Positions 33,985-50,739 are shown, counted from the first letter of the stretch. The stretch is DNA of 64,000 nt from Nitrospirota bacterium (GCA_963749655.1 CAVVOB010000022.1:1-64000); one strand, 5' to 3'. The notes: generated from the sequence alone by a model not told the origin. Made by a program: numbers and translations.

Positions 33985-34123
33985 GGCGGAGTCCGAACCA
34001 GTCTAAGAATTGGCTTTACTCCGTGCGGTCTTATTTGGTATGATAACGGTTATCCGCATTCCAACCGGGTGGAACCTCTTCACGAGGCGTATCCCGGAAT
34101 GATGCATTTTGGTGAGGAGTTTC

Positions 34124-35425
34124 ATGAGAAACAATATCGTTTCACTCGGGGCTGAAGAACTCAAGTATGAGATCCGCGAGATCGTCGCCGTGGCCAAGGA
34201 ATTCGCGGGCCTGGGCCTTGAGATCAACTGGGAGAACATAGGCGATCCGGTCCAGAAAGGTGAGAAGGTCCCGGAATGGATCAAGGAAATCATCATTGCG
34301 ACCATGAAGGAGGATATGACCTACGCATACTCGCCTACCAAAGGCCTGGATGCGACGAGGGAATATCTGGCCCGGAAAACCAACGGACACCGGGAGGTCA
34401 AGATCACCAAAGAGGACATTATCTTCTTCAACGGTCTGGGCGACGCCATCAGCAAGGTCTACGGCCAGCTGCGGAAGGAATACCGCGTCATCGGTCCCAG
34501 CCCGGCTTACAGCACCCATTCATCGGCCGAGGCGTCCCATGCCGGGTCGGAATACGTTTCCTACCGCCTCGACCCGAACAATTTGTGGTACCCCGATCTG
34601 ACCGATCTACGGATGAAGGTGAAGTACAATCCTTCCATCTCGGGCATCCTGGTCATCAATCCCGACAACCCCACCGGCGCGGTGTACCCGAGGGAGATCC
34701 TGCAGGAGATCACGGCCATTGCGAAGGAGTACGATCTGTTCGTGGTCTGCGACGAGATCTATATCAATCTGACGTACAACGGCAGGAAGGCAGTCCCCCT
34801 GGCCGACGTGATCAACGGTGTGTGCGGCATATCGATGAAGGGGATCTCCAAGGAGCTGCCCTGGCCGGGCGCGCGCTGCGGCTGGATCGAAGTTTACAAC
34901 GCGGACAAGGACCCCATTTTTGCGAAGTACATCAAGAGCATCGTCGACGACAAGATGCTGGAGGTCTGCTCCACGACGCTTCCCCAGAAGGTGATTCCGG
35001 CCATCATGGACGATGCGCGGTACGAGAGCCACATCGCCCATCGCAACGCAGTGTACGAGAAGAGGTCGCGCATTGCCTACGATCAGTTGAAAGACATCGC
35101 GGGAGTCATCGTGAACCGGACAAACGGCGCATTCTATATGACCGTCATGTTCAAGGAAGGCGCGCTGACCGCGAACCAGAAGCTCGAGGTGACGAACTCC
35201 GCGGCTCGGGAGAGGGTCGAACAGCTTGTTAAAAATGTAGCGCTCGACAAGCGGTTCGTCTACTACCTGTTGGCCGCGACCGGCATCTGCGTCGTGCCGC
35301 TGACGGGATTCAACTGCGACCTGCAGGGGTTCCGCGTCACGCTCCTTGAATCGGACGACGCCAAGTTTGCGTGGATCTTCAAGACCCTGCGCGATAAGAT
35401 AGAAGAATATCTCCGGAGCGCCTGA
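34124..35425 (+). CDS. PLP-dependent aminotransferase class I/II (AlaA/AspC-like)
   Basis: ENIGDP, INPDNPTG, DEIY, GISKELPWPGARCGW and GAFY. Confidence 0.92.
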   Translation: MRNNIVSLGAEELKYEIREIVAVAKEFAGLGLEINWENIGDPVQKGEKVPEWIKEIIIATMKEDMTYAYSPTKGLDATREYLARKTNGHREVKITKEDIIFFNGLGDAISKVYGQLRKEYRVIGPSPAYSTHSSAEASHAGSEYVSYRLDPNNLWYPDLTDLRMKVKYNPSISGILVINPDNPTGAVYPREILQEITAIAKEYDLFVVCDEIYINLTYNGRKAVPLADVINGVCGISMKGISKELPWPGARCGWIEVYNADKDPIFAKYIKSIVDDKMLEVCSTTLPQKVIPAIMDDARYESHIAHRNAVYEKRSRIAYDQLKDIAGVIVNRTNGAFYMTVMFKEGALTANQKLEVTNSAARERVEQLVKNVALDKRFVYYLLAATGICVVPLTGFNCDLQGFRVTLLESDDAKFAWIFKTLRDKIEEYLRSA

Positions 35426-35469
35426 GAACGCCGGCGGAAGCAAACCGTATGTACAAAGAAATTTCGAAG

Positions 35470-35500
35470 AAGGCCGTCCCCGAGCAGGATGGCCTTTTTT
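35470..35500 (+). terminator. Intrinsic terminator
   Basis: AAGGCCGTCC...GGATGGCC followed by a T run. Confidence 0.8.
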
Positions 35501-35586
35501 ATTGAGAAGCGCCGGCTCCGACGTCATGGTTCCTGTCGAATATTTCCGCAGCGTTCCTGCGCCGGCTCGCCTTCAAGGCATCGCTC

Positions 35587-35615
35587 TTGACAAGAAACAG
35601 GTGAAATGCTAGAGT
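35587..35615 (+). promoter_or_regulatory. Sigma70 promoter upstream of the riboswitch
   Basis: TTGACA-17 nt-TAGAGT with an extended -10 TGn. Confidence 0.7.
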
Positions 35616-35649
35616 AACATCCATCGATTTCCATACCACACGAGTATTC

Positions 35650-35783
35650 CTTTGCTCAGAGCAAACTCCGGGAAACCGGAGGACGCAGAGCCACGAAGCT
35701 ACGTAAGACAACCCGGACTTCCCGGAAACCACACTGCCGGCGCAAAGTCTTTGTCGTTTTATACGCTAGTCGAGCCGCCAAAG
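35650..35783 (+). ncRNA. GEMM-I (c-di-GMP-I family) riboswitch aptamer, A20 / c-AMP-GMP-type variant
   Basis: CAG-A-GCAAAC-TCCG-GGAAAC-CGGA-GGACGCAGAGCCACGAAGCTA...CGCTAGTCGAGCCGCC follows the Vc2 pattern GGGCAAACC..GAAA..GGGACGCAAAGCC..UAG..GUUACC; P1 is CTTTG/CAAAG. Confidence 0.85.
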
Positions 35784-35822
35784 AACCGGCAGTGATCTGT
35801 TGACTTTGGCGGCATTTTTTTT
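35774..35822 (+). terminator. Riboswitch expression-platform terminator
   Basis: GCCGCCAAAG...CTTTGGCGGC then A and a T run; the 5' arm overlaps the aptamer 3' strand. Confidence 0.85.
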
Positions 35823-35885
35823 GCGCTGACGCCCTGCCGTGCAGTCCGAGTCCACAGCAACCATTCTATCCTTCAGGAGGAAACC

Positions 35886-36344
35886 ATGACCTACTCGAAA
35901 AATATTCTGCTTCCCGTTCTGGCGCTTCTGGCGCTCGCGCTGGGCGCCTGTTCGCCGAAGATATACGGAACGGTCCAGCTCGTCGATGCGAACATGCAGC
36001 CGATCCCCCCTGCCGCGGATAATCCCCAGGGCACGGTGGTGAATATGATCAACACGAGCGTCGCGATCGAGAAAGCCTCCCAGTCCGTGTCGGTGAATGC
36101 CGAAGGCAAATACGAGTCCCTGAAGGATCAGGTGACGCCGGGTATCTACAAAGTGGAGGCGAGCAGGATCGGATACCTCACCGAGACCCTTTCCGTCGAG
36201 GTCACACGATTCGGCGGGAAAAAGGCGGACTTCAAGCTCAAGAAGATCCAGGAAGGGAAACGTAAGAGCATTGAAGGGTCCACCACCGATGAGAACAAGA
36301 TCGTGAACCCCGGCGAAGTCAACATCCAGCCGCCGACGATGTAG
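35886..36344 (+). CDS. Lipoprotein with carboxypeptidase-regulatory-like (Ig/prealbumin) domain
   Basis: Lipobox LGAC; IYGTV...GKY...PGIYKVEASRIGY; AGGAGG RBS. Confidence 0.8.
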   Translation: MTYSKNILLPVLALLALALGACSPKIYGTVQLVDANMQPIPPAADNPQGTVVNMINTSVAIEKASQSVSVNAEGKYESLKDQVTPGIYKVEASRIGYLTETLSVEVTRFGGKKADFKLKKIQEGKRKSIEGSTTDENKIVNPGEVNIQPPTM

Positions 36345-36450
36345 GCCTTTTCAAGGCATCGCCCGGAATCCGCAAGAACCCGGTTCGTTCTTGCGGGGAA
36401 ACGGTTCCATGCAATACTATGGTTGCGTTTAACGACCAGGAGGCAGAGAT

Positions 36451-39026
36451 ATGATGAAGCGCATGATCCAGACGGCCCTGTTACTTTCGGCATCAATGCT
36501 TCTGTTCGCCTGTGGAGGCGAGAAATTCGAGCTCAAGGTCAAAGCGAATATGAACGGACAGCCTGCGGCCCTGGCAAAGGTTTCCGTGGACGGCCAGGAG
36601 CTGGGGCTCACCGATAACAACGGCGACTTTTCAAAGAATCTTGAAAGAAAGGCCGGTACCGAAGTCGCGATCACCGTGGCCAAGGAGCAGCCGGGCCATC
36701 ATACGAATCCCTGGAAAGGTTCCTTTGTCGTGAAGGCCTCGCGCAACGCTGCCGAGGTGTATTCCTTTACGGCGGATCTTTCCTCGGCCCCCTTTGTGAC
36801 GATCAAGGCTACCTCGAAAAACGAGCCTCTTTCCGATGCCGTAGTCAAGGTCGGGGGAAGGAAGCGGGCCGGACCAACGAGAAGGGCGAACTCCTTTACG
36901 AATACAAAGAAGCACCCGCCAAGGGCTTTGACATCTCCGTGAGCAAGGCCGGTTACGGAACATGGCACAAGACCGCAGCCGTCGAGCCCGGGCAGCAGAT
37001 CGAGGCGGCACTCAACAGACGGGTGACCGTGACGATCAATGCCCTTTCGGATGAATACGGAGAGCAGCGCGGCGTTCCGGGAATCAGTGTGAGCATCAAC
37101 CACACGACGGTCGGCAAGACGGATGCCAAGGGCACATTCGCCTGGACGTCCGACAAGGACCTGGGCAAAAAAGTTCCCATCGCGCTGTCCGCCTCCGGTT
37201 ACCTGCCGGAGAGCTGGCAGGGTTCGATCACCCTGGACGGCGAGGTCAGGGTCCAGCGCTATTTTTATCCCGTCACACCCCGGCCCATCAGGACCGGCAT
37301 CTACCGGTTTGCCGGCAATACGCCCAACGTGGATCTGAGGGACGTCCTTACGCAGACCGAGGATGCGATCGCGGCGCAGCTTTTCAAGAATGTCTGCTTC
37401 AGCAAAGTTCCGTCCCAGACCCTTCAGAGCGATATGAAACGCGCGAAGGTGAGCATCGAAAAGGTCACCACCAAGGGGTGGCGGACGACACCGCTCAAAA
37501 AGACGGTGGACATGATCGTCGTCGGAAGCGTGGCCAAGGACGACAAGGGCTATCTGATCGAAGCGAAGTTTTATGCGCCGGGCGGGACCCAGATCATCAG
37601 CCAGATCGCCCGGGCCAAGAGCGCTTCGGACATTGACGGCGCGGCGAAGGAAATCGTGAACGCGGTGATAGAGCGCTTTCCCTTCGAAGGGACGGTGGTC
37701 GGGACCGAGGAGGAGCGCTATCGCATCAATCTCGGCAAGTCCGGACTACCGGATTATCGAGGGGCACCGACTTCCAGGTCATGACGCCGCGCATGGATGA
37801 TGCCGGCAAGATCACGGCATATCGGGAAGCCGGCAAATTGCGGGTCAGGAAAGCGGAGGACAGCGGCTCCTGGACCGAAGTGGAGGAACTGAAAAAGGAC
37901 GAGAAGATCTCCATCGGAGACCGTGTCGTGCGTCGTGTCTACCGGGAAGGAGAGGAAGAAGGCGCCCGCAACTATTTCATTCTGTCCAGCAAAAGGCGGC
38001 ATTGCCTCCCGATGTGACTCCGCTGTCCGGCGTGAACATCTATGTGAACAACGAGTGGCTCGGCTCGACCGGCCCCGACGGCAAGGCGGAGGTCCCGGCG
38101 CGGATCAACAAGAGCGTCACCCTGCTCCTTGTACCGGCACGGATACCAGCAGGTGACCGAGAAGATCACGATCGAGAAGAACAAGGAAACGAAGGAGTTC
38201 GTCCTGGCAGTGAACAACGCAGTGTTCAGGGTCGATTCGCGTCCGCAGGGGGCTGAAGTTTTCGTGGACGACGAGCAGATCGGCAAGACCCCGCTCCTGG
38301 CCGGCAAGGCCGTGCCCCTGGGATTCCACACGATCAAAGTCACCATCGGCGGGGACTACCGCGACTGGGAAGAGGTCGTGGAGTTCGCCAAGAAAGAAGA
38401 AGACCGCACCGGTGAACGGTCGATCGTCCTTCCGAAGGACTGTCTGAAGATCGGCGAGCGCGCAGAGCAGAAGGGCGACGTCGACGGCGCGATCGCAGCG
38501 TACCAGAGCACCGAGAAGGGGCACCCCGATTATTCCGTGGCCCATCACCGGCTGGCGCAGCTGTATCTGGACGACAAGGCCGACTTTGACGGGGCCATCC
38601 GCGAGTTCGAGAACGTGCTGTCCCTCCCCGAGAACCAGCAGCTGGTGTACAAGCAGTTCTCCGTGGCCTTTATGAACCTCGGCCATGCCTATTACGAGAA
38701 GGGCAGCGCGCTCGTGCAGAAGGACACGCGAGGCGGCGGCGCAGAACTTCGGCAAGGCGATCCAGAACCTTCAGATTGCGAAGCAGAACACGCGGTTCTT
38801 CCCGAACGACCGTTATGACGAGGCGGTGCACGATACGTACTACTACACCGCACTCTCGTATCATAAGCTCTACCAGTTGACCAAAAAAGGCAATATCCTG
38901 AACAGCGCCAACCAGGCGTGGCGGGATTACTTCGACTTCTTCCCGAAAAAGCTCGAGGGGAACAGCACCTTTGAGCAGAGCCGGGAAGCGGCGCAGAAAT
39001 ACTGGGACCAGATCAAGAACCTGTAG
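36451..39026 (+). CDS. Large lipoprotein: Ig-like repeats + CsgG/FlgT-like domain + PEGA + TPR, frameshifted
   Basis: Lipobox LFAC; repeated VDGQELG.TD..G units; VDMIVVGSV..FPFEGTVV..INLG..GDRV; PEGA VDSRPQGAEVFVDDEQIGKTPL; TPR AFMNLGHAYY. Confidence 0.75.
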
Positions 39027-39047
39027 CGCCTGTCGGAGGACGGTATT

Positions 39048-40344
39048 GTGATAGTCGGGAAGGGACGTTCCATACTGGCATGCGCCGCGATCGTCGTTAC
39101 GCTGCAATCTTCAGCAACGGCGGGCGAGGTCCTGTCGGGGCCTGCGGGGACAACCGATTGCCAGTGCAGCGCGGGCGGGACAGTCAACGGGAGCGCCGGT
39201 TTCGGCGCCGTCCGCCACCCTGCAGAGCGTTATGAGCAGCGCCACGGGAACGTGCCCGTGCCCGGAAGAAAAAAAGCCCGCGCCGCTCGAGCCGCTGTCC
39301 CTTCGTCCCCTGGTCCCCATCGAAGCCGGCCGTAACGACTCGAATCCGGTCGTGGTCTCCCCGCGGCACCTTCATCGCCTTTGAGCGGAGCGTCGGGGAT
39401 ACGAAGGAGATCCGCATCGCACTGCCGGACGGCACGCCGGTTCAGACCATTTACTTCCTGCTGTCCGGCGGGCAGCAGGGACATGAAGTTCTTTTTCCCC
39501 GGGGTATCCGAGGAAACCAGCTATAACGCGGGCATCACCTGGTCGCCCGACGAGTACCGGTTCGTGTTCATGAGCAACGGCGGCGAGGGCAACTATGACC
39601 TGTATCTGCAGGACCTCGGCGCGGCAGCGCCGAAGCGGCTGACGGACCATAAGGAAAAGGACGGCCAGGCGCACTGGTCGCCGTTCCGGGGACCGCATCG
39701 TCTTCGTGTCGGGCAGGTCGGGCAACGGCGATGTGTACAGTCATGGACCTCGCGACGCGCGCCCTCACGCGCCTGACGCGGGGAGGCAAGGCATAGCTCT
39801 ATCCCCGGTGGTCGCCGGACGGCGAAGAAGATGGCCGTGATGCACGGCAGCAACGAGAACCATGATATCGTTCTGATCAATGACGCGGCCAGGCCGGCGG
39901 AGTCGCAGAGAGCGCTTACGACGTGGACCTCGGACGATCTGAGGCCTGTCTGGTCGCCGGACGGAAGGAAGATCGCCTTTTATTCCAATTATAATGCCGC
40001 AGGTGATCCCCGGGCCTGGTCGCTTGCGGTGATTGCCGCAGACGGTTCGGATCCCGCGGAGGGAGACGGGCTTGCCGCATGCGTCGTGGCGACGGACATC
40101 ATCCCCGATGTGGAGGCGGGTCCTGCGTGGATGCCCGACAGCAACCGGATCGTTTTCGTCAAGAACGACCGGCAGGAGTACAATCCGCTCTATGTTGCCG
40201 ATGTCGGTCCGGAAGACGGCCATTCCGATCAGGACGGACACGAAGATGAACCACGATGTCGCCGGTTCGGCCGACGGGACGATCGCGTTCCGCGCCCAGG
40301 TCAATCAGTGGGACCAGATCTATATCATGAAGCTGAAGGAGTGA
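39048..40344 (+). CDS. TolB-like PD40 beta-propeller protein, frameshifted
   Basis: Repeated WSPD motifs (ITWSPDE, PVWSPDGRKIAF, PAWMPDS) and GNYDLY; N-terminal signal-like segment. Confidence 0.82.
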
Positions 40345-40350
40345 TTTAAG

Positions 40351-40380
40351 TGCGGAATGCGGAATGCGGAATGCGGATTG
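40351..40380 (+). repeat. (TGCGGAA)n heptamer array
   Basis: TGCGGAATGCGGAATGCGGAATGCGGATTG. Confidence 0.85.
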
Positions 40381-41880
40381 GGAAAATCGTTATCACGGGC
40401 ATTGTTGTCGGTTTCAGCGTCTGTTCATCATGCCCTGACGACGGGGACCGGCTTCCTGCTGCCGGATGATCGCCGTTGCCAAGGCGATGAAGCTCTATGA
40501 AAAGCGGCATTACGACGAAGCTGCCGGCGTGCTTCGCTCCGGCGCCGTCGATCCGTCCCGGCAGGGCGCGGCGAACCTTGCGCTCGGCATGGTCTATTTC
40601 AAGAATGCGGTGCTGCACCGCGAACTGTACCGGACCTCGGAACTGGTGTTCCAGGACTATCTGAAAAAGCTGTCCGCTGCCCAGGGCAGGGACCGGAGCC
40701 GCTTCGTCGATCTGTACTTCGGCGAGACCCTGCTCGAAGCGGGCAAGCCCGACGTGGCCGCGATCTATCTCGAAAAGTTCGCCAACACGGCGGGAATCGA
40801 TCAGAAATACCAGGCGATCGCGAACGTCAGTCTCGGCCTCAGCTACTACCGGAGCAAGGAAAGCCAGAAGGCCGCGGACCTGTGGGCGGCCATCGATGCC
40901 ACGGACCCCGAGGTGAAGGCCGAGCTGGCGGCGGCCTACAGCAAGGCGGGCATCACGGACAAGAACGCCGAGGCGCTCATCGACGAGGCCCTGGGTGCAG
41001 CGAAAAAATCGGGCAAGCCGGTCACGGTACGGATGGTGAAGAACATGCTGGCCGTCTATGTCCGGGCCGGACAGACCGAGAAAGGCCTGGACCTGCTCAA
41101 GCGCGCGGACCTGAAGGCGTTTTCGTACCGGGAGACGCTGGGAAAGTCCAAGGTCATCAATTTCTACGACTTGTCCCTGCTGGGCGACATGGCCGACATC
41201 TACGGACGAGCGGCAATAACGTACCTCGATAAGGCCGCAGCGGACGGGAAGACGAAGAGCATCGCCGAATTCTATCTCGCTCAGGCCCAGGCGCTGTTCG
41301 GCTCCCTCGATCAGTCCTCGAAGGTCGCCGCTTCGTTCATGGCGACAGCGCAGCTGCCGCAGCAGTACAAGGACCTTATGCAGGTGTGGCAGACCGCCAA
41401 CGTATACCAGCGAAGCCGCAAGGCAGAGGCAACCGCCCTCTGGAATGAGTTTTCCCAGAAGCAGGCCGCGGATCCGGACGTGCTCGCCGAGATTTTGTTC
41501 ACCTGCGGCAGGCTGAAGATCGATTGTCCGAAGGTCGTTCAAAAGGCCTCGATTGCGGCCGAAGCCGGGGAAGGGAAAAAGTTCGCGAACCTGAACATCG
41601 CCGTCGGAACCTACTATCTCGGCCGTCTGGACACTGCAAGGGCGTCGCCTACCTGGAGGCCGGCCGCGACAAGGGCAACAAGAACAAGATCGAGTCGAAT
41701 GATCCGGTGATGCTCGTGAGCCTTGCCGATGCCTACTTCCGGACCAAGAAATTTTCCGAAGCCCTTGAGATCTATTTCGAGATGAGCAAACAGTTCCCCG
41801 AGGTGCGCCAGATCCAGGACGCCCTGCAGGGGGTCTATGCCATGGAGCACAAAAGCGCGGGAGACGTGAAGATCAATTAA
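40371..41880 (+). CDS. Exported TPR-repeat protein, frameshifted; start approximate
   Basis: All-helical TPR-like units (LYFGETLLEAGK..A..YL, LGLSYY, LADAYFRTKKFSEAL); signal-like MRIGKIVITGIVV. Confidence 0.75.
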
Positions 41881-41886
41881 GGTAAT

Positions 41887-42038
41887 CCGCGCCTTGGCAT
41901 CCCCCGGCTCCTGCGGGGGTGGAAAGCGCTCACTCGCGCGTGACACAAACGTGTCACGCTCCGCGAGTGAGCAGTTCCGGGAGGTCGCGTCAGTTTTAGT
42001 CCCGACAGATCGGGATGCCGGAGGGGGCTCCACTGCGG
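41887..42038. repeat. Dispersed multi-hairpin REP/MITE-like element, copy 1
   Basis: First ~70 nt near identical to 55851ff; nested palindrome GCTCACTCGCG-CGTGACAC-AAAC-GTGTCACG-CTC-CGCGAGTGAGC. Confidence 0.85.
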
Positions 42039-42191
42039 AATTCAGAATGTGGAATGAGAAGGAAAATATCCATGGTGTGCGAGCCGGGAGTGAAACGGCA
42101 TGCCGGACTGCGCAACGGAAGAAGACGATTTGATTCGATCGAAATAAAAAGTACAGCGGTGTCGGAGACAAAAAGTGCGACCTTGGTCTTT

Positions 42192-42222
42192 ATTCCGCAT
42201 TCCGCATTCCGAATTCCGAAAT
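42192..42222 (-). repeat. Inverted heptamer array (ATTCCGC)n
   Basis: ATTCCGCATTCCGCATTCCGAATTCCGAAAT. Confidence 0.8.
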
Positions 42223-42239
42223 TCGTTGAGGAGGACACT

Positions 42240-43856
42240 ATGAAACGGACACTGGTGATGCTGCTGCTGATCGCGCCTTCATTACGGCGGGGGCCGATGC
42301 CTGGGCGGGCCGCAAGAACGACAACCGGCCCGACGGCGGGACCCTCAGCTACGGCGAGTACGGCCGGCCGGCGACGCTCGACCCGATCACGAGCAACGAG
42401 ATGATCTCGCTGCGGCTCACGGAGCTGATCTTCAACGGGCTCGTGGGCATCAACGAGAAGCAGGAGATCGTGCCCGAGCTGGCGGAGAAGTGGGAGACGC
42501 TCCCGGACCGGCGCACCTACACGTTCTTCCTCTGCGCAAGGACGTGACCTGGCACCCGAACGAAGGCGAGGAAGCCAAACCGTTCACGGCCGATGATGTG
42601 GTCTTCACCTACAACATCATGATGCACCCCAAGACCATCACGCCGCTCAAGGTGCGGTACGAGTTCATCGCCGCGTCGAGAAGATCGATGACTAGACGGT
42701 GAAATTCACGCTCAAGCGGCCGATCCTGAACGCGCTGGCCAAGTTCAGCTTCAAGATCATCCCGAAGCACGGCCCGGCCAACTCCGCTGTACCTCACGCG
42801 GGACGATCCCTTTGTCCAGAACCCCATCGGCACCGGCCCCTATATGCTGAAGAACGTTACCGCCGAGCGCGAGATCGTGCTGGTGGCGAACGAAAATTAT
42901 TTCAAGGGCAGGCCGCATATCGACAAGTTGGTGGCCAAACCCTTTGCGGACCAGAACATCATGACGCAGGCGCTCATGTTCAACGCCATCGACATGATCG
43001 TGCTGGTGAACCCGCGCGACATTCCCGAGATCCAGGGCGACAAGCGCTTCATCCTGCAGCCCTACAACGCGCTGTCGTACTCGTTCTTCGGCTACAACTC
43101 TGCGGAACCCGCTGCTTGCGGACAAGCGCGTGCGCAAGGCCTTCACCTATGCCGTGAACCGGCAGGAGATGCTCGACTCCTTCTTCAACGGACAGGGCAC
43201 CATCATCTCCGGGCCCTTTTGCGCCCGGGAGCTGGGCCTACAACCTCGATGTGCAGCCCCTTGCCTTTGATCCCGAAAAGGCGAAGGCGCTGCTGCAGGA
43301 GGCGGGCTTCACCCGCGGCGCGGACGGCATCATGCAGAAGGACGGCAAGAGGCTGTCGCTGACCCTCAAGGTGCCGATCGAGAAGGAGAGCGAGGCGGTG
43401 AAGCGCGTGGTGCTCGCGTTCAAGAACTATCTCAAGAACGTCGGCGTCGACGTCAAGGTGGAGTTCAAGGAGTGGCAGGCCTGGAAGGAAGACGTGTTCC
43501 TGGAGCACGATTTCGACATCGTTTTCGCCTCCTGGGTGTTCGACGATTCGGCGGACATCTCGTCGCTGTTCCATTCCGCCGAGATCGGAGCATGGAAAAA
43601 CAATTTCGGCGGCTATTCGAATCCCGAGGTGGACGGTCTGATCAACGAAAGCAAGCTCACGCTGGACCATGAGAAGCGGCGGACCATCAACCGCAAGCTG
43701 CACGCGATCCTGGCCGACGAGAACCCCTATACGTTCCTCTGGACGCTCACGAACTACGCGGGATACCACAAGAAGGTCCGGCACGTGGCGATCCATCCCT
43801 ACAAGTTCTTCTCCTATGCCGATGACTGGTTCATGGAAGGGAAAGACCAGAAGTAA
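42240..43856 (+). CDS. Peptide ABC substrate-binding protein (OppA/DppA-like), frameshifted
   Basis: TLDP, IFNGLV, PELAEKWE, FTADDVVFT, PIGTGPY and YSNPEVD; GAGGAGG RBS. Confidence 0.9.
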
Positions 43857-43862
43857 CCTTCA

Positions 43863-43894
43863 ATGCGGATTGCGGAATGCGGAATGCGGAATGT
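43863..43894 (+). repeat. (TGCGGAA)n heptamer array
   Basis: ATGCGGATTGCGGAATGCGGAATGCGGAATGT. Confidence 0.85.
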
Positions 43895-43914
43895 AAAAAA
43901 AGGCTGAGTGGCTC

Positions 43915-44883
43915 ATGAAGCTCTCAGCCATCCGGCCCATAGCCCTGGTGCTGTCCAGGGAGCTGGCGATCACCGGGCTCCTGCTCCTCGGCGTGAGCTT
44001 CGTGGTCTTCACCATCCTCTACGTTTCGCCCGGCGATCCCTTCAGCGTGCTGCTGGAAGGACAGCTTGTCCACGGCAGATGCACGGAGCGGCGTGCGCGA
44101 AGCCCTGGGCGTTCCGACGTCCTGGTATGGCCAGTATCTCTCCTGGCTTGCCGGCATGCTGCAGGGGAATTTCGGCACCTCGATCCGCACCGGCTTGCCG
44201 GTCCTGGGCGAGGTCTTCCGCGTCGGACTCAACACGCTCATCCTTACCCTCGGATCGATGCTGGTCACGCTCCTGATCGCCGTGCCGATCGCCCTGTATT
44301 CCGCGGTGCGCGGCGTCAACGCAGTGATCCTGGCCGCTCACCATGTTCGCCTACGTGGTCTCGGCGCTTCCGGTCTTCTGGCTCGGCTATATCGTCATCT
44401 ATTTCTTCACGCATAAACTCGGGCTTTTCCCGCTTGCCTTCGGCTTCTCGGGCAGCGATCAGAAGTACGCGCTGGCTCTACGAGCTCCTGCCGATCTTGG
44501 TGCTCGGCGTGGGCAACGGCACCATCAGCGAAGTGATCCGCTACCTGCGCGAGGAAATGGGCAGGGTCATGGCCGAGGATTACATCCGCACGGCACGGGC
44601 CAAGGGAGCCTCGGTCTGGAAGCACTCGTTCAAGGAAGGGCTCCTTATTCCGGTGACCGAGATCATCGCTGCCAAGATCCCCTTCATCCTCGGCGGGGCC
44701 GTCATCGTCGAGCAGGTGTTCAACTGGCCGGGCATGGGCAGGATGGCCTGGCAGGCGGCGCAGGACCGCGACTATCCCGTGATCATGGGCATCGCGATCC
44801 TGGCCGCCGTGTTCGTGCGCATGGGAAGCCTGTTCCAGAGCATCGTGTACGTGGCGGTGAATCCGAGGGCGTCGAAGGAATAA
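43915..44883 (+). CDS. Peptide ABC permease (OppB/DppB-like), internal frameshifts
   Basis: SPGDP, GNFGTS, DYIRTARAKG, IVEQVFNWPGMG and RDYPVIMG. Confidence 0.92.
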   Translation: MKLSAIRPIALVLSRELAITGLLLLGVSFVVFTILYVSPGDPFSVLLEGQLVHGRCTERRARSPGRSDVLVWPVSLLACRHAAGEFRHLDPHRLAGPGRGLPRRTQHAHPYPRIDAGHAPDRRADRPVFRGARRQRSDPGRSPCSPTWSRRFRSSGSAISSSISSRINSGFSRLPSASRAAIRSTRWLYELLPILVLGVGNGTISEVIRYLREEMGRVMAEDYIRTARAKGASVWKHSFKEGLLIPVTEIIAAKIPFILGGAVIVEQVFNWPGMGRMAWQAAQDRDYPVIMGIAILAAVFVRMGSLFQSIVYVAVNPRASKE

Positions 44884-44891
44884 CTTGATTT

Positions 44892-44919
44892 CGGAATGCG
44901 GATTGCGGAATGCGGAATT
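44892..44919 (+). repeat. (TGCGGAA)n heptamer array
   Basis: CGGAATGCGGATTGCGGAATGCGGAATT. Confidence 0.8.
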
Positions 44920-45019
44920 AAAAAGATGCAATGACAGAAGCCGGGGCTGGTTCCGGCCAGCAGTCGGCAATTCTTAAGGCTCGGTTGATCTGTGGGATTG
45001 GAACAGCTAAAGAAGACAC

Positions 45020-45978
45020 ATGGAAAAGGTCTGGGTAGTACAGGATCCTGATGAGGAGCGCACGCAGGTTCGGAAGACGAAGCTCCTCAAGAATGAAGAG
45101 CCCAAACCCGAAAAGAGTCCCGCTGTTGCCTACTCGCTTTCGATGGTCTGCTGGGGTGCAGGGCAGCTGTTCAATCGTCGGCAAACCAAGGGCGCGGCGT
45201 TCATGGTTCTGATGTTCCTCGCGGGGTCCGGAGCGTATCTTGTACACTTTTACCTGCAGGACCTGATTTCGTTTGCAGCCGGCCGTGGAATATCCGGGGC
45301 AAGCCTGTTCCTGTTCGCGGAAGCTACGTTCATGGGCATTCTGCTTTTTGGGGCCTATAATGCCGGCGATGCATATCACTGCACCAGAAGGGGACGGACA
45401 AATCCTTTCCCCGGGGTATCGAGCCGCGTGTATCCCGTTCTCTGTTCTCTGCTCGTCCCGGGATGGGGGCAGTTTATGAACGGCCAAGCAGTCAAGGGAA
45501 GCATCTTCACGGGATTTTCGGTCATCAGTTTCTTTTCGCTGGCAACGCTTCCCGCGGTCTTTCTGGCCTGGCCGGTCCTTGAGCCTTCCGGCGCCCGGTT
45601 CATCGTGGAAGCGCTTTTTACAGGGTCGGTTCTGTTTGCCCCCCTTATTCCGCTTATCTGGTTATTCGGCGCCTATGATGCGCTTCAGGTAAGCCTCGAC
45701 GACTACAGAAAGGAACCGCTCTGGGAACGGATCAAGGCGGCCAACAACCGCCGGCGTGTGCAGGGGTGGGTGCGCGGAGTTTTCCCGCAGATAAAAGCGA
45801 CCGTTGCGCTCGGCTTGTTCCTGCTGCTGTTCGCCATCATTGCGTATCGATATTTTCCGGCTGGCTATTACGACGACGTATTCCTTTCGGTCCAGTCGCT
45901 TCTGAAGAAACGGGAATGACCTTGGTGCCGGAGCTCATCGACAGGCTGCACGTCTTGATGACGACAGTGGGGAAGTGA
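45020..45978 (+). CDS. Hypothetical polytopic membrane protein with duplicated S..(P/W)G.GQ module; end 45919 or 45978
   Basis: SLSMVCWGAGQLFN..KG and SLLVPGWGQFMNG..KG, each followed by TM segments and a Y.A/DA motif. Confidence 0.7.
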
Positions 45979-46107
45979 TGCAATTGCGGAATTCCTGCGC
46001 ACTCCGTGCATCCGCACTCGTAAACGCTGGGGACAGGTCGGAATGCGGAATTAAAAGCAGTCCACCGCGAAGGTGCACAAAGGACGTACGCCGCTTCATT
46101 AAACGAT

Positions 46108-47001
46108 ATGAAGACTTATACGCAAATATCCGGTGAGATCGGCGAGTTTTCAGACCTGCCGTTCTGGAAAAAGGCCGATGCAATCGATCTTGCCTATGTT
46201 GCCTACGGCCTGCTGATAGCGACGCTCGTGGTGGTGTCCTACATCCTCGGGTCCTTCCACCTGTTGAGCCATGATCCCCAGGATATCGACCTCGAGCTCA
46301 TGCTGGCCCCTCCGGGGACGGCGGGGCACCTTCTCGGCACGGACTATATGGGAAGGGACATGCTCTCGCGCCTCATCATGGGCATCCAGGCATATTTTCT
46401 GCCGGGGCTCCTCGCCATCACCATTTCGCTTCTCGTGGGGACGGTGCTCGGTGTGCTGGCCGGATACCGGGGAGGCGCCTACGACAGGATTATCACCTAC
46501 TTTAATAATCTGGTGGACTCCTTTCCCCGCCTCGTCCTGATCCTGCTGGTGGTTGCGGCATTCAAGCCCGACATCTATTACATCATGCTCGTCGTGGGCG
46601 TCACGAACGTGCCTGTCGTGGCGTCGCTCATCAGGGGCAAGATCCTGTTCCTCAAGCAGAAGAACTTCATCGAGGCTGATATCGCGCTGGGAGTGCCCAC
46701 CGGTACGATCATCCTGAAGCACATCCTGTGGCACAATTGCCGCTCCCTTCTCATCATCCAGGCGACCCTCGGCATGGCGGAGGCGATCCTGATGGAAACC
46801 TCGCTCAGCTATCTCGGGTTCGGCGTGCAGGAGCCGGCGCCTTCGTGGGGCAACATGGTCCAGTCCGGGTCCAATTACTTCATGCGGGGCACCTTCTGGC
46901 CTTCCACGGCGCCTGCGCTTGCGATCCTCTTCACCATCCTCGGGTTTCACCTGCTCGGCGACGGACTGAACAACATTCTCGAAGGCAAGAGGAGCACATG
47001 A
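46108..47001 (+). CDS. Peptide ABC permease (OppC/DppC-like)
   Basis: HLLGTDYMGRDMLSR, FIEADIALG, LSYLGFG, PSWG and LLGDGL. Confidence 0.93.
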   Translation: MKTYTQISGEIGEFSDLPFWKKADAIDLAYVAYGLLIATLVVVSYILGSFHLLSHDPQDIDLELMLAPPGTAGHLLGTDYMGRDMLSRLIMGIQAYFLPGLLAITISLLVGTVLGVLAGYRGGAYDRIITYFNNLVDSFPRLVLILLVVAAFKPDIYYIMLVVGVTNVPVVASLIRGKILFLKQKNFIEADIALGVPTGTIILKHILWHNCRSLLIIQATLGMAEAILMETSLSYLGFGVQEPAPSWGNMVQSGSNYFMRGTFWPSTAPALAILFTILGFHLLGDGLNNILEGKRST

Positions 47002-48098
47002 CCGCGGCGCCGCTTCTGAAGATCGAGAACCTCCGCACCTACTTCCATTCGCGCAGCAAGCGGGCCTTTATCCGCTCCGTGGACGGCGTGAGCCTCGATG
47101 TGGCCCGCGGCGAAACCCTCGGCATCGTGGGCGAGAGCGGAAGCGGCAAGAGCATCACGGCGCTGTCGACAGTCGGCCTCGTGAGCGCCGGACCGGGCGT
47201 CATCAGCGGAAGGATCGAGTTCACGCTGGGCGATGCCACCCGCGATCTGCTTCAGGGCCTGGAAGATTACGTCACGCTCACGAAGAACGACGGAAGGATC
47301 ATGACGGTGCGCAAGGATGTTGCCGGCTGGATGCGGAACACCGAGCGGATTATGGACGGCGTGCGCGGCAGGCAGATCGCCATGATCTTCCAAAACCCCA
47401 AGTCATCGCTCAATCCCTTCACCACCGTGGGCAAACAGATAACGGAAGCGGTCAGGCTCCACACGTCCGTCCGCAGCGAGGCAGAAGCGCGGGAACGTGC
47501 CATTGCCTGGCTCGACCGGGTCAAGATCGACTCACCGCGTCTCCGGTACAACAACCATCCCTACGGACTGTCGGGCGGCATGTGCCAGCGCGCCATGATC
47601 GCCATGGCGCTGGCCTGCGAGCCCGCGCTGCTCATTGCCGACGAACCCACGACAGGTCTTGACGCCACGATCCAGACGAAGATCGTCGATCTCCTTGCCG
47701 AGCTCAAGTCCGAGCTCGGCACCACGACCATGCTGATCAGCCATGATATCGGCATCATCTCGCGCCTCGCCGACCGTGTTGCCGTCATGTACGGCGGGAC
47801 GGTCGTGGAGTACGGCAGCGCCCCGGACATCCTGTCTCCCGGTGAGGGCACGAAGCATCCCTATACGGCCGCGCTCATGGCGTCGGTCCCGAGCAGGCGG
47901 AACGTGCGGGAGAAGGGCTATCTTCAGGCCATTGAGGGCGATGTGCTCGACACCATCAACATCCCGGCGGGGTGCAGGTTCTACGGCCGGTGCAGCCGCG
48001 TGACCGATGCCATCCGGGAAAAATGTGAACACTGCGAGCCGGACCTGAGGGAAATTGCGGCGGGTCATAAGGTACGGTGCTGGCTGTATTTTGATTAA
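46998..48098 (+). CDS. Peptide ABC ATP-binding protein (OppD/DppD-like)
   Basis: GESGSGKS, MIFQNP, LSGGMCQR, IADEPTT, HPYT and GCRFYGRC; ATGA overlap with the previous gene. Confidence 0.95.
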   Translation: MTAAPLLKIENLRTYFHSRSKRAFIRSVDGVSLDVARGETLGIVGESGSGKSITALSTVGLVSAGPGVISGRIEFTLGDATRDLLQGLEDYVTLTKNDGRIMTVRKDVAGWMRNTERIMDGVRGRQIAMIFQNPKSSLNPFTTVGKQITEAVRLHTSVRSEAEARERAIAWLDRVKIDSPRLRYNNHPYGLSGGMCQRAMIAMALACEPALLIADEPTTGLDATIQTKIVDLLAELKSELGTTTMLISHDIGIISRLADRVAVMYGGTVVEYGSAPDILSPGEGTKHPYTAALMASVPSRRNVREKGYLQAIEGDVLDTINIPAGCRFYGRCSRVTDAIREKCEHCEPDLREIAAGHKVRCWLYFD

Positions 48099-48128
48099 TT
48101 TGAAAAGAAATGTTAACGTAAGGTTGTT

Positions 48129-49142
48129 ATGCCCAAGACGATCCTCGAAGTCATAGATCTCAAGAAGCATTTCGCCCCCCCCAGAGGGATTTTTTCTTCC
48201 TTCCGTACGGGACGGGCCGTGCCCGCGGTGGACGGAGTGAGCTTCTATCTCAAAGAGCATGAGACCGTCGGCCTCGTCGGCGAATCGGGATGCGGGAAGA
48301 CCACCATCGGCAGGACCATCCTGCGGCTCGAAAAACCCACGTCAGGAAGCATCATTTTCGACGGCAGGGACATTACAACGGTCCCGACAGCGGAGCTGCG
48401 CCAGCTCCGCGGCCAGATGCAGATGATCTTCCAGGACCTGGACGCGGCGCTCAATCCGAAGATGCGCATCCGGGACATCCTGAAGGAAGCCATTACGGTA
48501 CACCATCAGGTAAGCGGCGAAGAGGCGGACAAACGCATCGGCGACCTGCTTGAACAGGTGAACCTGAAAAAGAGCAAGCTTCAGAATTTTCCCCATGAGC
48601 TGTCAGGCGGCGAGAAACGCAGGGTCGGCGTGGCGCGCGTTCTGTCCGTCGGCGCCCGGTTCATCGTGGCCGACGAGCCCACGAGCGCGCTCGACGTGTC
48701 CATCCAGGCGCAGGTCGTGAACCTGCTGCGGGATCTCCAGGAGAAGCTCGGCCTTTCCTATCTGTTCATTTCCCATGATCTGCGGGTCGTGGAACTGGTC
48801 AGCCACAAAGTGGCGGTCATGTATCTGGGCAAGATCGTGGAAATGGGTCTTGCCGACAGGATCGCCCATGCCGCCCTTCACCCGTACACCCATATCCTCT
48901 GGTCGTCGCTCGTGGAGAAGCGGAGCATGGAGCTGGCCCGCACGGCGAAAAGCGTCCACGCGGGAAGTTGGGGCGTGTTCGACTTCGAACGTCCGCCCGT
49001 AGGATGCCGCTTCGCCCCGCGCTGTCCTGTATATGAATCCAAGAACAGGCCCGCAATCTGCACTGATCCCCAATCCGAACCACAGCTGACGGATGTCGGA
49101 AACGGCCACCGGGTGGCTTGCCATTTTCCGATCGGCTCCTGA
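48129..49142 (+). CDS. Peptide ABC ATP-binding protein (OppF/DppF-like)
   Basis: GESGCGKT, LSGGEKRR, ADEPTSALDVS, HPYT, GCRFAPRC and VACH. Confidence 0.95.
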   Translation: MPKTILEVIDLKKHFAPPRGIFSSFRTGRAVPAVDGVSFYLKEHETVGLVGESGCGKTTIGRTILRLEKPTSGSIIFDGRDITTVPTAELRQLRGQMQMIFQDLDAALNPKMRIRDILKEAITVHHQVSGEEADKRIGDLLEQVNLKKSKLQNFPHELSGGEKRRVGVARVLSVGARFIVADEPTSALDVSIQAQVVNLLRDLQEKLGLSYLFISHDLRVVELVSHKVAVMYLGKIVEMGLADRIAHAALHPYTHILWSSLVEKRSMELARTAKSVHAGSWGVFDFERPPVGCRFAPRCPVYESKNRPAICTDPQSEPQLTDVGNGHRVACHFPIGS

Positions 49143-49299
49143 TCCTCTTCCCGCAATTCCGCCTTTCCTGTGATGAGCCCGGATCATCGTTGCTCCAACC
49201 GAAGTACTCCGCTAGTTGCATACCTTCTTGACAATCAACATTGTTGTGCTAGGCTTAGGACAAGATGTGGAAGATTTAAAAAGAAAAGAGGCGATCACA

Positions 49300-49629
49300 A
49301 TGAAAAAAATTCTTTACATAGTTATGGCAATGGCCTTTGCCCTTCCTGTGGGACTGGCCTTGGCTGATGAAAATATGCCGAAGGGCCCCGAAAAAGGCCT
49401 GTACACACCGAACGGCATCACCTATATGGACAGAGAAGGAGCCGCCTGCTCCCATGCAAGCGATATGAGCGTGGAAGGTTCGGCTGCAGGCGGGCTAAGC
49501 TCGGGCGCAGTTGTCGAGGTGGGCAACGGAATCACTGCTTTTGAACTGGGCAAGGCCGTATGCGCCAGCGGACCGGCAGAACGAGAATCGGGCAAGAAAA
49601 TCGAGAACGGCATTACTTATTTTGACTGA
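49300..49629 (+). CDS. Small secreted hypothetical protein with three NGIT repeats
   Basis: Signal peptide MKKILY..ALA; NGITY, NGITAF, NGITYF; EGSAAGG. Confidence 0.7.
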   Translation: MKKILYIVMAMAFALPVGLALADENMPKGPEKGLYTPNGITYMDREGAACSHASDMSVEGSAAGGLSSGAVVEVGNGITAFELGKAVCASGPAERESGKKIENGITYFD

Positions 49630-49747
49630 GGGCTGATCCGGGCGGGACCTTTTGCACATGCGGGCGACGCCATCGATACCAAGCAGGCTGAAATCAGCCT
49701 GCTTGTTTTTTGTTTTAAGGAGTGACGGCGGAGCAAAATGCGTGCTC

Positions 49748-50383
49748 CTATTGGAAGTACGCGCCTTGCTTGATGCCATGACAGGTATCGGCATCATATT
49801 GTTTTTCAGCTGTGCTCAGTTGCTGCATGCGTTGACTGCAGAGTGCCAATACCCGCCGGTCGATCTCGGCGCAGCTGGAGGCAGGGGGGAGTTCGGCCAC
49901 AGCGCGGCTCAGCTCCGTAACTGCCTGAACCGCCCTGTCGCGATGGCCGTTTTCGTGGGTGCTGAGGTTTTTCATGTAGGCATTCCATTTATCTGAGAGC
50001 TGGCGGGGCGCGCCGGCCGTCTGCACCCATTTGGGGTAGCGGAATACGATATCAATGGTTGCTCTGAAAGAATCAGCCGTACACGACCTCGGAGCCCGTC
50101 CATAATTATAATCCCACGTGACATACCACTTTGTCAGGGAATCATACTGCCGCCCGTCGCTTAACGTGGGGCCTTTCAGGCGCATCTCGCTCACAAGGTC
50201 CTTTTCGCAGTTGCCTCTTACTTCGTAATACTCGGTTTTTTCCGTTATCCGGGGCGGAAGGTGTCCGTTCCTGCCCGCCATGCCGTTCGCAGGGTCGATG
50301 TTTGCAATTTCCATCCCTCTTTCTGCGGCTGATGCGGACACGACAGCAGTAAGCACGATGGTGATGATAAATCCCCGTGTCAT
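49748..50383 (-). CDS. DUF922-like secreted Zn-dependent protease
   Basis: Signal peptide; YYEVRG, T.W, YPKW, HENGH (HExxH) and YDADTCHG..QGA. Confidence 0.85.
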   Translation of the reverse strand: MTRGFIITIVLTAVVSASAAERGMEIANIDPANGMAGRNGHLPPRITEKTEYYEVRGNCEKDLVSEMRLKGPTLSDGRQYDSLTKWYVTWDYNYGRAPRSCTADSFRATIDIVFRYPKWVQTAGAPRQLSDKWNAYMKNLSTHENGHRDRAVQAVTELSRAVAELPPASSCAEIDRRVLALCSQRMQQLSTAEKQYDADTCHGIKQGAYFQ

Positions 50384-50739
50384 CGCGGTACTCTTCTGAG
50401 AAAGGTTGGCGCCGGAAGCCCCTGTAATGAAACCGCCTGCAAAAAATAGTGAAAACTTCGGCCTCCGTCGGAAGCTGCCGGATCAAGTTCCCCGGCTCCC
50501 TGTTGTATCGTCAGAGTTCTTCCCGGCCATATGAGATATAGTTTACTTCGAGTCTCGGCTGAATTCAAGGTAGGGAGAACAGTAATGAAGAAGGCACGCA
50601 GCACCCGTGAACGGCAGACAAAAAGCATCCTCTGTGCTATAGTTTATGAACGCTCCATATTTTTCTTCAATACCGTCCGTGGGCCAGGTGCGGCCAAGGC
50701 CGTATATAAACGGCCCCGCGGAACTTGTCTGAGGTGTAC

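Follow-up and report, generated by a model that had tools for sequence, protein, structure and literature searches.

A GEMM-I riboswitch heads a conserved gene block for candidate envelope proteins and a peptide-type importer in a Nitrospirota bacterium

FlgT (of the Vibrio flagellar H-ring), PelC, and CsgG are ring-forming lipoproteins located under the outer membrane, and PilZ domains are receptors of cyclic di-GMP (c-di-GMP). Among RNA regulators, the closest described systems are the GEMM-Ib riboswitches of Geobacter (Gs1761, Gm0970). According to the literature, G20 of the Vc2 riboswitch contacts the ligand and is replaced by A in riboswitches for cyclic GMP-AMP (cGAMP), many of which are bispecific for cGAMP and c-di-GMP (PMC6140456); the A20G change switches the Gmet_0970 GEMM-Ib aptamer from cGAMP-selective to c-di-GMP-selective, and deletion of the cGAMP synthase gene gacA lowers the transcription of all genes behind GEMM-Ib riboswitches (PMC6456294). 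Here, a stretch of 64,000 nucleotides from a Nitrospirota bacterium (GCA_963749655.1, CAVVOB010000022.1:1-64000; this whole stretch is referred to as the window) was analyzed, with a focus on positions 35,587 to 49,142. There, a GEMM-I (RF01051) aptamer precedes genes for two lipoproteins (A and B), a periplasmic PD40 β-propeller (C), a periplasmic TPR protein (D), and an ATP-binding cassette (ABC) importer of the peptide type (OppA, OppB, OppC, OppD, and OppF; Table 1). The original prediction, made by a model from the DNA alone, had proposed a second-messenger-induced trans-envelope assembly combined with an importer; synteny, the absence of a known match, and a predicted complex between C and OppA support this proposal. 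Given the anatomy, conservation, and folds established here, we hold it probable, as a whole working model, that the riboswitch switches on one operon whose products form an envelope complex linked to a peptide importer.

The gene block is kept together in a broad set of bacteria. A 281-residue piece of B returns matches in 18 of 41 genomes, the window's own counted (15 of the 24 from the same family, both of those from a second family, and none of the 14 from nine other families of the phylum), and these matches sit in open frames of 605-920 residues, mostly ~860-880. The 12 loci from relatives all display the order A-B-C-D-oppA-oppB-oppC-oppD-oppF up to the contig's end. A scan of one genome per species adds 69 further loci, all from metagenome-assembled genomes (MAGs), that are labeled mostly Nitrospirota but also Rokubacteria, Gallionellaceae/Nitrosomonadales, Desulfuromonadales/Geobacteraceae, Desulfobacterales, Thermodesulfobacteriota, Acidiferrobacterales, and Gemmatimonadetes. 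The expected synteny of the accessory and ABC genes holds in 69/69 of them, the genes present being contiguous and in the same order (X, a tenth gene, excepted); 40 loci contain all nine genes, 44 reach oppF, and A is the first gene of the block wherever the locus extends to it. Gene X, lying between oppB and oppC, is peculiar to the window and the relative G004 in a comparison of 81 loci. The flanking genes vary by taxon (Rnf, a K+ transporter, an acyl-CoA dehydrogenase, and others) while the order of the block is kept, which argues that it travels as a unit. Within the block, OppA is the best conserved member (77% mean column identity): between G004 and the Gallionellaceae loci, it is 75-78% identical, B ~50%, and D 40-46%. 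In the Geobacteraceae-like family of one carrier, full-length B occurs in one of 87 genomes, the carrier itself, and the other genomes of this family return only domain-level matches to B (E 5e-7 or weaker). A simple scan of the + strand from the riboswitch to oppF yields no terminator-like site, in line with the claim that internal terminators are absent; together with the order kept in all 69 loci between varying flanks, this suggests that the operon is one unit. Judged by gene order and homology, the operon is conserved across several bacterial phyla and is covered by no paper or named family that we found. Indeed, family libraries, solved structures, and full-text literature searching name no such system, and the main texts of two articles on the Geobacter cGAMP regulon (PMC6456294 and PMC8835794), the supplements of which could list such genes, contain no mention of ABC, PEGA, oligopeptide/peptide, or transporter.

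The aptamer is the sole Rfam match in the 64-kb window and exceeds the RF01051 gathering score, which makes it a GEMM-I member. Its P3 loop carries a 50-nt insertion, and its P1 is formed by residues 35650-35654 paired with residues 35778-35782. The terminator arm GCCGCCAAAG (35773-35782) pairs with CTTTGGCGGC (35803-35812), which is followed by eight T, and this hairpin is present in the minimum-free-energy (MFE) fold (-69.1 kcal/mol, z -3.66). The 5' arm of the terminator takes in both the P1 3' strand (CAAAG) and the last part of P3. Owing to this overlap, closure of the aptamer and formation of the terminator should be mutually exclusive, which is the layout of a transcriptional ON-switch. 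Rfam at its gathering threshold reports the aptamer upstream of A in 9 relatives' loci, and a covariance model built from these nine aptamers was then used on the orthologous loci. It returns 36 matches, 33 of them distinct, every one located just upstream of gene A. Across the 33 distinct aptamers, 12 of the 25 pairs in P1, P2, and P3 change on both sides and 96.6% of the cells are paired, although the alignment was fitted to its own covariance model, a bias that favors the structure; none of 500 shuffles reaches the observed level, and slid controls are 29-47% paired. A strict pattern for a complementary terminator arm followed by a T-run is found in 27 of the 36 matches, while the nine others exhibit, by reading, variants of the arm or, in the locus L069, another hairpin with a T-run. 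A terminator-like site on the minus strand (35681-35666), lying inside the aptamer, was dismissed as it is the P2 hairpin read backwards.

Regarding the ligand, the contacting position is the unpaired base immediately preceding the outer P2 pair. A occupies it in 35 of the 36 aptamer matches, the window being one of the 35. We take this column to be position 20 in the Vc2 numbering. With the column so assigned, the window carries A for G at this position, the mark of GEMM-Ib, and the riboswitch therefore appears to be an RF01051 member of the A (GEMM-Ib-like) variant. An A at this position suggests 3',3'-cGAMP, or both cGAMP and c-di-GMP, as the predicted ligand rather than plain c-di-GMP. The orthologous operon of L069 (positions 210-319; a MAG labeled 'uncultured bacterium') is headed by a G-variant aptamer with a different terminator hairpin, and the same operon thus seems to sit under either variant, A or G. 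The window genome contains seven RF01051 matches, of which two are A-type and five G-type. The second A-type aptamer lies outside the window (G000:C22:123409-123497, minus strand; locus L094 11910-11998) and heads genes for a 668-residue protein with six Big_2 stretches and a 735-residue multihaem cytochrome c, a gene set that resembles the Geobacter cGAMP regulon; a gene for a PAS histidine kinase-receiver protein is found nearby. The window riboswitch hence shares with the GEMM-Ib riboswitches of Geobacter the RF01051 architecture, an A at the equivalent of G20, and a terminator-based ON platform, as well as a sister aptamer preceding a multihaem cytochrome in the same genome. It differs from them by its host, a Nitrospirota MAG, by the insertion in its P3 loop, by an operon that is outside the described Geobacter regulon, and by having a G-variant counterpart in one orthologous operon.

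The original prediction had placed this riboswitch at the head of the operon; an aptamer also precedes the operon in 32 of 58 testable loci, and our model finds none in the other 26. Of the 69 species loci, 11 have too little upstream DNA to judge. The aptamer follows taxonomy: it is present in 27 loci with Nitrospirota-type labels and lacking in two, and present in one of seven loci labeled Thermodesulfobacteriota or 'delta'. Rfam at the gathering threshold returns no match in six loci missed by our own model. Pfam analysis of 24 flanking open reading frames (ORFs) from eight riboswitch-less loci reports unrelated housekeeping genes, and no PilZ, GGDEF, or EAL domain.

The accessory proteins were analyzed through intact orthologues, chiefly those of G004, which served for folds and searches. 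A and B exhibit lipoboxes (LGAC and LFAC, respectively), whereas the orthologues of C, D, and OppA possess, by our reading of their N-termini, a signal peptide devoid of lipobox. The B orthologue of G004, folded with a 48-row alignment, reaches a predicted local distance difference test (pLDDT) of 88.2. Secondary structure and Pfam analysis of this protein delineate three Ig-like domains (residues ~25-280), an α/β segment (residues 282-430), and a small β-barrel (residues 442-500), followed by another Ig-like domain (residues 510-586), a PEGA domain (residues 590-653), and a TPR domain (residues 665-856). A structure search with the whole B model returns TPR matches only and nothing on the other domains. 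As the search was swamped in this way, the central 230 residues were folded alone (pLDDT 92.2). Foldseek then reports FlgT (3w1e, E 5.9e-12), FlgT of the LPHT ring (E 9e-12), and TolB (~1e-7), with GNA1162, PelC, and CsgG at lower ranks. A VIA-align search of 48,161 chains reports TolB (1c5k; Z 12.3, rmsd 2.4, 116 aligned residues) for the first subdomain and FlgT (8z5n_5, LPHT ring; Z 11.7, rmsd 8.3, 203 aligned residues) for both subdomains, as well as CT253 (Z 10.7), CsgG (6lqh; Z 10.4), PelC (Z 10.2), LpoB (Z 8.8), and LptE (Z 7.7). The central domain of B thus has the two-domain FlgT fold, and the description of B as 'CsgG/FlgT-like' is right at the level of the fold. It does not extend to family membership: Pfam returns no match for residues 190-520 at E up to 0.01, hence no CsgG (PF03783) profile match, Pfam and NCBIfam together return nothing for the central part, and there is no flagellar, curli, or pel context. 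Neither the operon nor the annotated parts of the 69 loci contain flagellar genes. Likewise, ESM Atlas returns only the unnamed clusters of B itself, and the source names of B homologues are limited to 'hypothetical', 'TPR repeat protein', and 'PEGA domain-containing protein'. Compared with FlgT, PelC, and CsgG, B therefore shares the fold of its central 230 residues, FlgT being matched over both subdomains, but adds four Ig-like, one PEGA, and one TPR domain, and has no flagellar, pel, or curli genes nearby.

The C orthologue contains PD40 repeats (E 4e-26) and matches the TolB profile TIGR02800 only partially (126.9 bits vs a cut-off of 343.15). As in Tol-Pal (TolB-Pal, CpoB), a TolB-N-like domain (in B), a PD40 propeller with a partner predicted on one face (C), and a TPR protein (D) are co-encoded. 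In contrast with Tol-Pal, the TolB-like domains are split over two proteins, the propeller has a solute-binding protein as its predicted partner, and TolQ, TolR, TolA, and Pal are absent from the operon, so that with a TIGR02800 score below cut-off the locus does not qualify as Tol-Pal. By analogy, the accessory module, which we find in no named system, would most resemble a divided TolB arrangement, anchored by lipoproteins, in which the propeller retains a solute-binding protein.

The peptide-type importer recognized in the original prediction is complete in its domains, comprising an SBP_bac_5 receptor, two BPD_transp_1 permeases, and two ATPases with ABC_tran and oligo_HPY domains. Among solved structures, OppA is closest to those of B. 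subtilis AppA (1xoc, E 1e-62), of an unnamed family-5 protein (E 2.6e-58), of E. coli DppA (1dpp, E 6e-49), and of HbpA, while MppA (E 1.3e-28) and NikA are near 1e-28. In DppA, D408 presumably anchors the amino terminus of the peptide and R355 its carboxylate. The Asp aligned to D408 (D450) is invariant in a 41-row OppA alignment, and R355 aligns with a Val. If these roles hold, this combination would fit an oligopeptide with a free N-terminus, and the transporter may be classified as an Opp/Dpp-type importer with peptide as its putative substrate. It resembles the Opp/Dpp/App importers (AppA, DppA) by its full domain set and the conserved Asp of OppA. It is unlike them by the Val aligned to R355, scores below every equivalog cut-off, an unusually high conservation of OppA across phyla, and the constant co-encoding of OppA with four envelope proteins, one of which, the propeller, it is predicted to bind.

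C and OppA were chosen for complex prediction because both stay together in distant relatives. The input consisted of G004 C residues 75-436 and OppA residues 38-553, with 41-row alignments in matched order. Three runs return ipSAE values of 0.92, 0.91, and 0.92, the best control reaching 0.01. The mark set by the tool was attained in 116 out of 157 solved complexes and in 2 out of 215 mismatched pairs, counts that apply only approximately here, where own alignments were used. The predicted complex has ~120 contacts, the pLDDT of the partner is 89-90, and the runs agree in at least 93% of the contacts. The interface involves one face of the propeller and OppA segments 225-285, 322-333, and 395-424. 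It is more conserved than the rest of either protein (mean identity to the first row 0.73 vs 0.57 for C and 0.89 vs 0.79 for OppA; one-sided rank tests, p = 5e-4 and p = 7e-3, respectively, which are overstated as the rows are kin). This prediction lends computational support to the physical coupling of scaffold and importer that had been proposed. To our knowledge, no structure has been solved in which a TolB-like propeller binds a family-5 binding protein.

A distant clade provides a separate view of the same core. An exhaustive profile-free search with B returns 1938 proteins at E <=0.001, among which a set of 950-1050-residue proteins, 23-29% identical to B, is encoded in 20 metagenome loci. 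In these clusters, the gene for the B-like protein (all 20 loci) is preceded by those for a one-pass membrane protein (u1) in 15 loci, a small lipoprotein (u2) in seven, and an A-like CarboxypepD_reg lipoprotein in 13, and is followed by those for a C-like PD40 propeller in 15 and a family-5 binding protein, 42-44% identical to OppA, in 12. All 14 loci that reach far enough also encode a cytoplasmic PilZ protein of 277-309 residues (PilZ E 1e-9 to 1e-12), the N-terminal part of which reads as receiver-like (REC-like); its gene is located behind that of the binding protein in 11 of the 14 and directly behind B in three. Based on these assignments, PilZ is a second, independent tie of the system to cyclic dinucleotides. 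With a riboswitch in one lineage and PilZ in another, the same protein core would be tied to cyclic dinucleotides by an RNA or by a protein receptor, which provides independent evidence that the link is functional. Upstream of distant clusters (L098, L102, L110, L096, L105), two divergent ORFs of ~380 and 430-500 residues are found; in L098, the sole locus scanned, their products are a Kdo transferase and a glycosyltransferase of family 9 (heptosyltransferase family), so that a connection with the synthesis of the lipopolysaccharide core may be suspected.

In the working model, the terminator, whose 5' arm is the 3' side of the aptamer, would form in the absence of ligand, while with ligand bound, P1 would hold that strand and RNA polymerase would read through. 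The products would be the lipoproteins A and B, the latter with its FlgT/TolB-N/PelC/CsgG-like domain, the periplasmic propeller C, and the periplasmic TPR protein D. As OppA is predicted to dock on one face of C, the receptor of the importer would be tethered to this scaffold; OppA probably binds peptides with a free N-terminus and hands them to OppBCDF. The purpose would most likely be peptide capture in a second-messenger-induced, surface-associated state.

Several points weigh against this working model. Riboswitches are lacking, by our own model, in 26 of the 58 testable loci, including all seven of Rokubacteria and all seven of Gallionellaceae/Gallionellales/Nitrosomonadales, and riboswitch control should therefore be considered lineage-specific. 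We infer both the co-transcription of the operon and the ON direction of the switch. A six-frame motif scan for Hypr GGDEF proteins in the window genome, an 86.6% complete and indel-rich assembly, yields no convincing cGAMP synthase, CD-NTases being outside the scan. At the specificity position of its 19 GGDEF-like sites, 16 have Asp, two Asn, and one Ser, the latter paired with GGEEF, a combination that PMC6456294 describes as inactive. The C-OppA complex is a prediction and was made with G004 orthologues, because the corresponding genes of the window carry frame changes. The operon includes no gene for an outer-membrane channel. None of the Opp proteins reaches an NCBIfam equivalog cut-off (the best, Opp4A, at 214.8 bits vs 650), and the substrate of the importer could therefore be something other than a peptide. 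Lastly, within the distant loci (<=10 kb on each side), D, OppB, OppC, OppD, and OppF are not found, except for one weak generic ABC match in L108; the binding protein being there with no OppBCDF nearby, import may not be its core role, although permease genes could lie elsewhere in these genomes.

The frame changes call for a separate explanation. Using tblastn with the intact G004 proteins, at least 18 of them are found between ~36850 and 44470, distributed over B (5), C (at least 4), D (1), oppA (at least 5), and oppB (3), while A, X, oppC, oppD, and oppF have none. They crowd the first 7.7 kb, the next 4.6 kb being free of them, and stop-free runs of at least 300 codons make up a fraction of 0.40 of positions 36800-44500 vs 0.95 of 44500-49142. 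A decaying locus, with genuine frame changes that would reduce the operon of this organism to a series of pseudogenes, would agree with this crowding and with the frame-changed stretch being among the more fragmented ones of the genome (0.40 vs a median of 0.62, the 10th percentile being 0.37). However, contigs of the public run X1, a freshwater sediment metagenome that covers 6% of the sampled words and is the one run, DNA or RNA, listed for 36400-44900, exhibit an additional G after 36852, where five G stand in a row, missing bases at 37746 and 37756, and an extra T behind 42667, all four at frame-change sites, and are otherwise identical to the window; in one contig, 187 bases contain two gaps and no other differing letter. 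When the first three indels are applied by script, the open frame from 36451 grows from 163 to 521 codons, and every gene piece still aligns with its orthologues at 55-90% identity. The depth of the X1 contigs is 2-3.4, the four sites are the only ones that could be checked, and X1 is possibly the source sample of the window itself. The pseudogene reading, to which we give hardly any credence, is rejected on the basis of these indels, the reopened frame, and the preserved alignments, and the frame changes are, with high confidence at the least, assembly errors. Low coverage or a strain mixture are possibilities for the uneven quality of 36800-44500.

The other alternatives accept the genes as functional and differ in what the binding protein does. 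It might be mainly a structural or sensing subunit of the envelope machine and not a nutrient receptor, the core being the B-like lipoprotein, C, and the solute-binding protein as a cyclic-dinucleotide output (adhesion, envelope remodeling, or contact sensing) to which OppBCDF was added later in the window's clade. The distant clade fits this view with its A, B, C, binding protein, one-pass membrane protein, and PilZ protein and no permease or ATPase genes within the loci, and so do the status of the binding protein as the most conserved component and the location of the predicted propeller interface on its most conserved patch. Against it, each of the 44 sufficiently long loci of the window's clade continues with a complete OppBCDF, the Asp corresponding to the presumed amino-terminus anchor of DppA is invariant, and the view of the distant clade is limited to <=10 kb on each side, so that permease genes could sit elsewhere; we consider this alternative unlikely. 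A cell-wall or outer-membrane coordination module, Tol-Pal/CpoB/LpoB-like in spirit and combined with murein-peptide recycling, is distinctly improbable. In such a module, B, C, and D would act at the peptidoglycan and Opp would import released stem peptides. The B fold does match the TolB N-domain (Z 12.3) and LpoB (Z 8.8), C, a PD40 propeller, matches the TolB profile in part, the solved relatives of OppA include MppA (E 1.3e-28), and the Geobacter cGAMP regulon includes a lipoprotein transpeptidase operon, according to PMC6456294. But OppA is much more similar to AppA and DppA than to MppA, C scores far below the TIGR02800 cut-off, the operon contains no TolQ, TolR, TolA, Pal, or peptidoglycan enzyme, and the analogy is built on folds common to many unrelated lipoproteins. 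We see a still slighter chance that an envelope or adhesion module (A-D) and an ordinary nutrient Opp are two independent functions under one promoter that make no contact. Operons often mix functions, the coupling of the two halves rests on computation, and the cistrons are separated by 60-360-nt spacers with repeats; yet the halves are adjacent in 69/69 loci across phyla with changing flanks, the predicted C-OppA complex has clean controls, and the binding protein stays with A-B-C even where the permease is missing.

Beyond the working model of an induced envelope complex coupled to the importer, the two clades may represent an undescribed class of cyclic-dinucleotide-governed envelope machine, with B, C, and a propeller-docked binding protein as a built-in subunit forming its core, one clade being wired by a riboswitch and OppBCDF, and the other by a one-pass membrane protein and PilZ with no transporter. 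This joint reading is tentative, and we doubt it somewhat more than we believe it. If it is true, the holding of a solute-binding protein by a TolB-like propeller would represent a novel use of this protein family, and, if the C-OppA contact is real, receptors of ABC importers can be stationed on an outer-membrane-anchored scaffold. The operon would be a defined, widely conserved cyclic-dinucleotide target outside the usual pili, cytochromes, and exopolysaccharides, carried by uncultured groundwater, soil, and sediment bacteria (Nitrospirota, Rokubacteria, Gallionellaceae, Desulfuromonadales), and A-type (cGAMP-like) GEMM-I riboswitches would be extended to Nitrospirota.

Table 1. Features of the riboswitch-headed operon in the window.
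Feature	Position	Strand	Evidence
Sigma-70-like promoter, TTGACA-17 nt-TAGAGT with TG extension	35587-35615	+	10/12 matches
GEMM-I (RF01051) aptamer, A variant	35650-35782	+	52.9 bits vs gathering score 35; E 1.7e-7
Intrinsic terminator (expression platform; predicted ON switch)	35773-35821	+	Sequence, MFE fold
Gene A, 152-residue lipoprotein, CarboxypepD_reg-like Ig fold	35886-36344	+	Lipobox LGAC; PF13620 E 1.8e-5, below cut-off
Gene B, ~860-residue lipoprotein, 5 frame changes	36451-39026	+	Lipobox LFAC; tblastn, Pfam
Gene C, periplasmic PD40 (TolB-like) β-propeller, at least 4 frame changes	39048-40344	+	PD40 in orthologue
Gene D, periplasmic TPR protein of ~495 residues, 1 frame change	~40390-41880 (approximate start)	+	
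oppA, family-5 solute-binding protein, at least 5 frame changes	42240-43856	+	SBP_bac_5 E 2e-88 in orthologue
oppB, permease, 3 frame changes	43915-44883	+	
Gene X, 299-residue protein, five hydrophobic segments	45020-45919	+	DUF5683 E 8.8e-6, below cut-off
oppC, permease, intact	46108-47001	+	
oppD, ATPase (ABC_tran + oligo_HPY), intact	46998-48098	+	Start overlaps oppC stop
oppF, ATPase (ABC_tran + oligo_HPY), intact	48129-49142	+	

The promoter, aptamer, terminator, and co-directional genes A-D and oppA/B/C/D/F are all located where the original prediction had placed them, to which the present analysis adds gene X, the frame changes (at least 18), and the A at the ligand-contacting position of the aptamer. 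The promoter is the top-scoring of nine promoter-like sites in 35000-50500, where shuffles give 4.8. It is preceded by an aminotransferase gene (34109-35425) that has its own terminator-like hairpin and T-run at ~35470-35503. Downstream of oppF, a small gene (49297-49629, in the region 49238-49705) encodes a signal peptide and three NGIT(Y/F/A) motifs, with a promoter-like TTGACA...TAGGCT read upstream of it; Pfam returns nothing for it, and the relatives do not keep it behind oppF. Behind it lies the strongest terminator of the region (49680-49705; 11 pairs, then TTTTTTGTTT), which is also the first + strand terminator-like site after the operon in the simple scan. The operon spacers contain (CGGAATG) heptamers in runs of two to four (40353-40384, 42040-42060, 42192-42225 (inverted), 43866-43897, 44888-44923, and 46039-46056), and the inverted pair between D and oppA could form a long hairpin. 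There are 85-91 clusters of this repeat in the genome, and it is found in 14 of 114 loci (L001-L114), including like spacers of orthologous operons in other Nitrospirota MAGs; it may be an RNA element similar to repetitive extragenic palindromic (REP) sequences.

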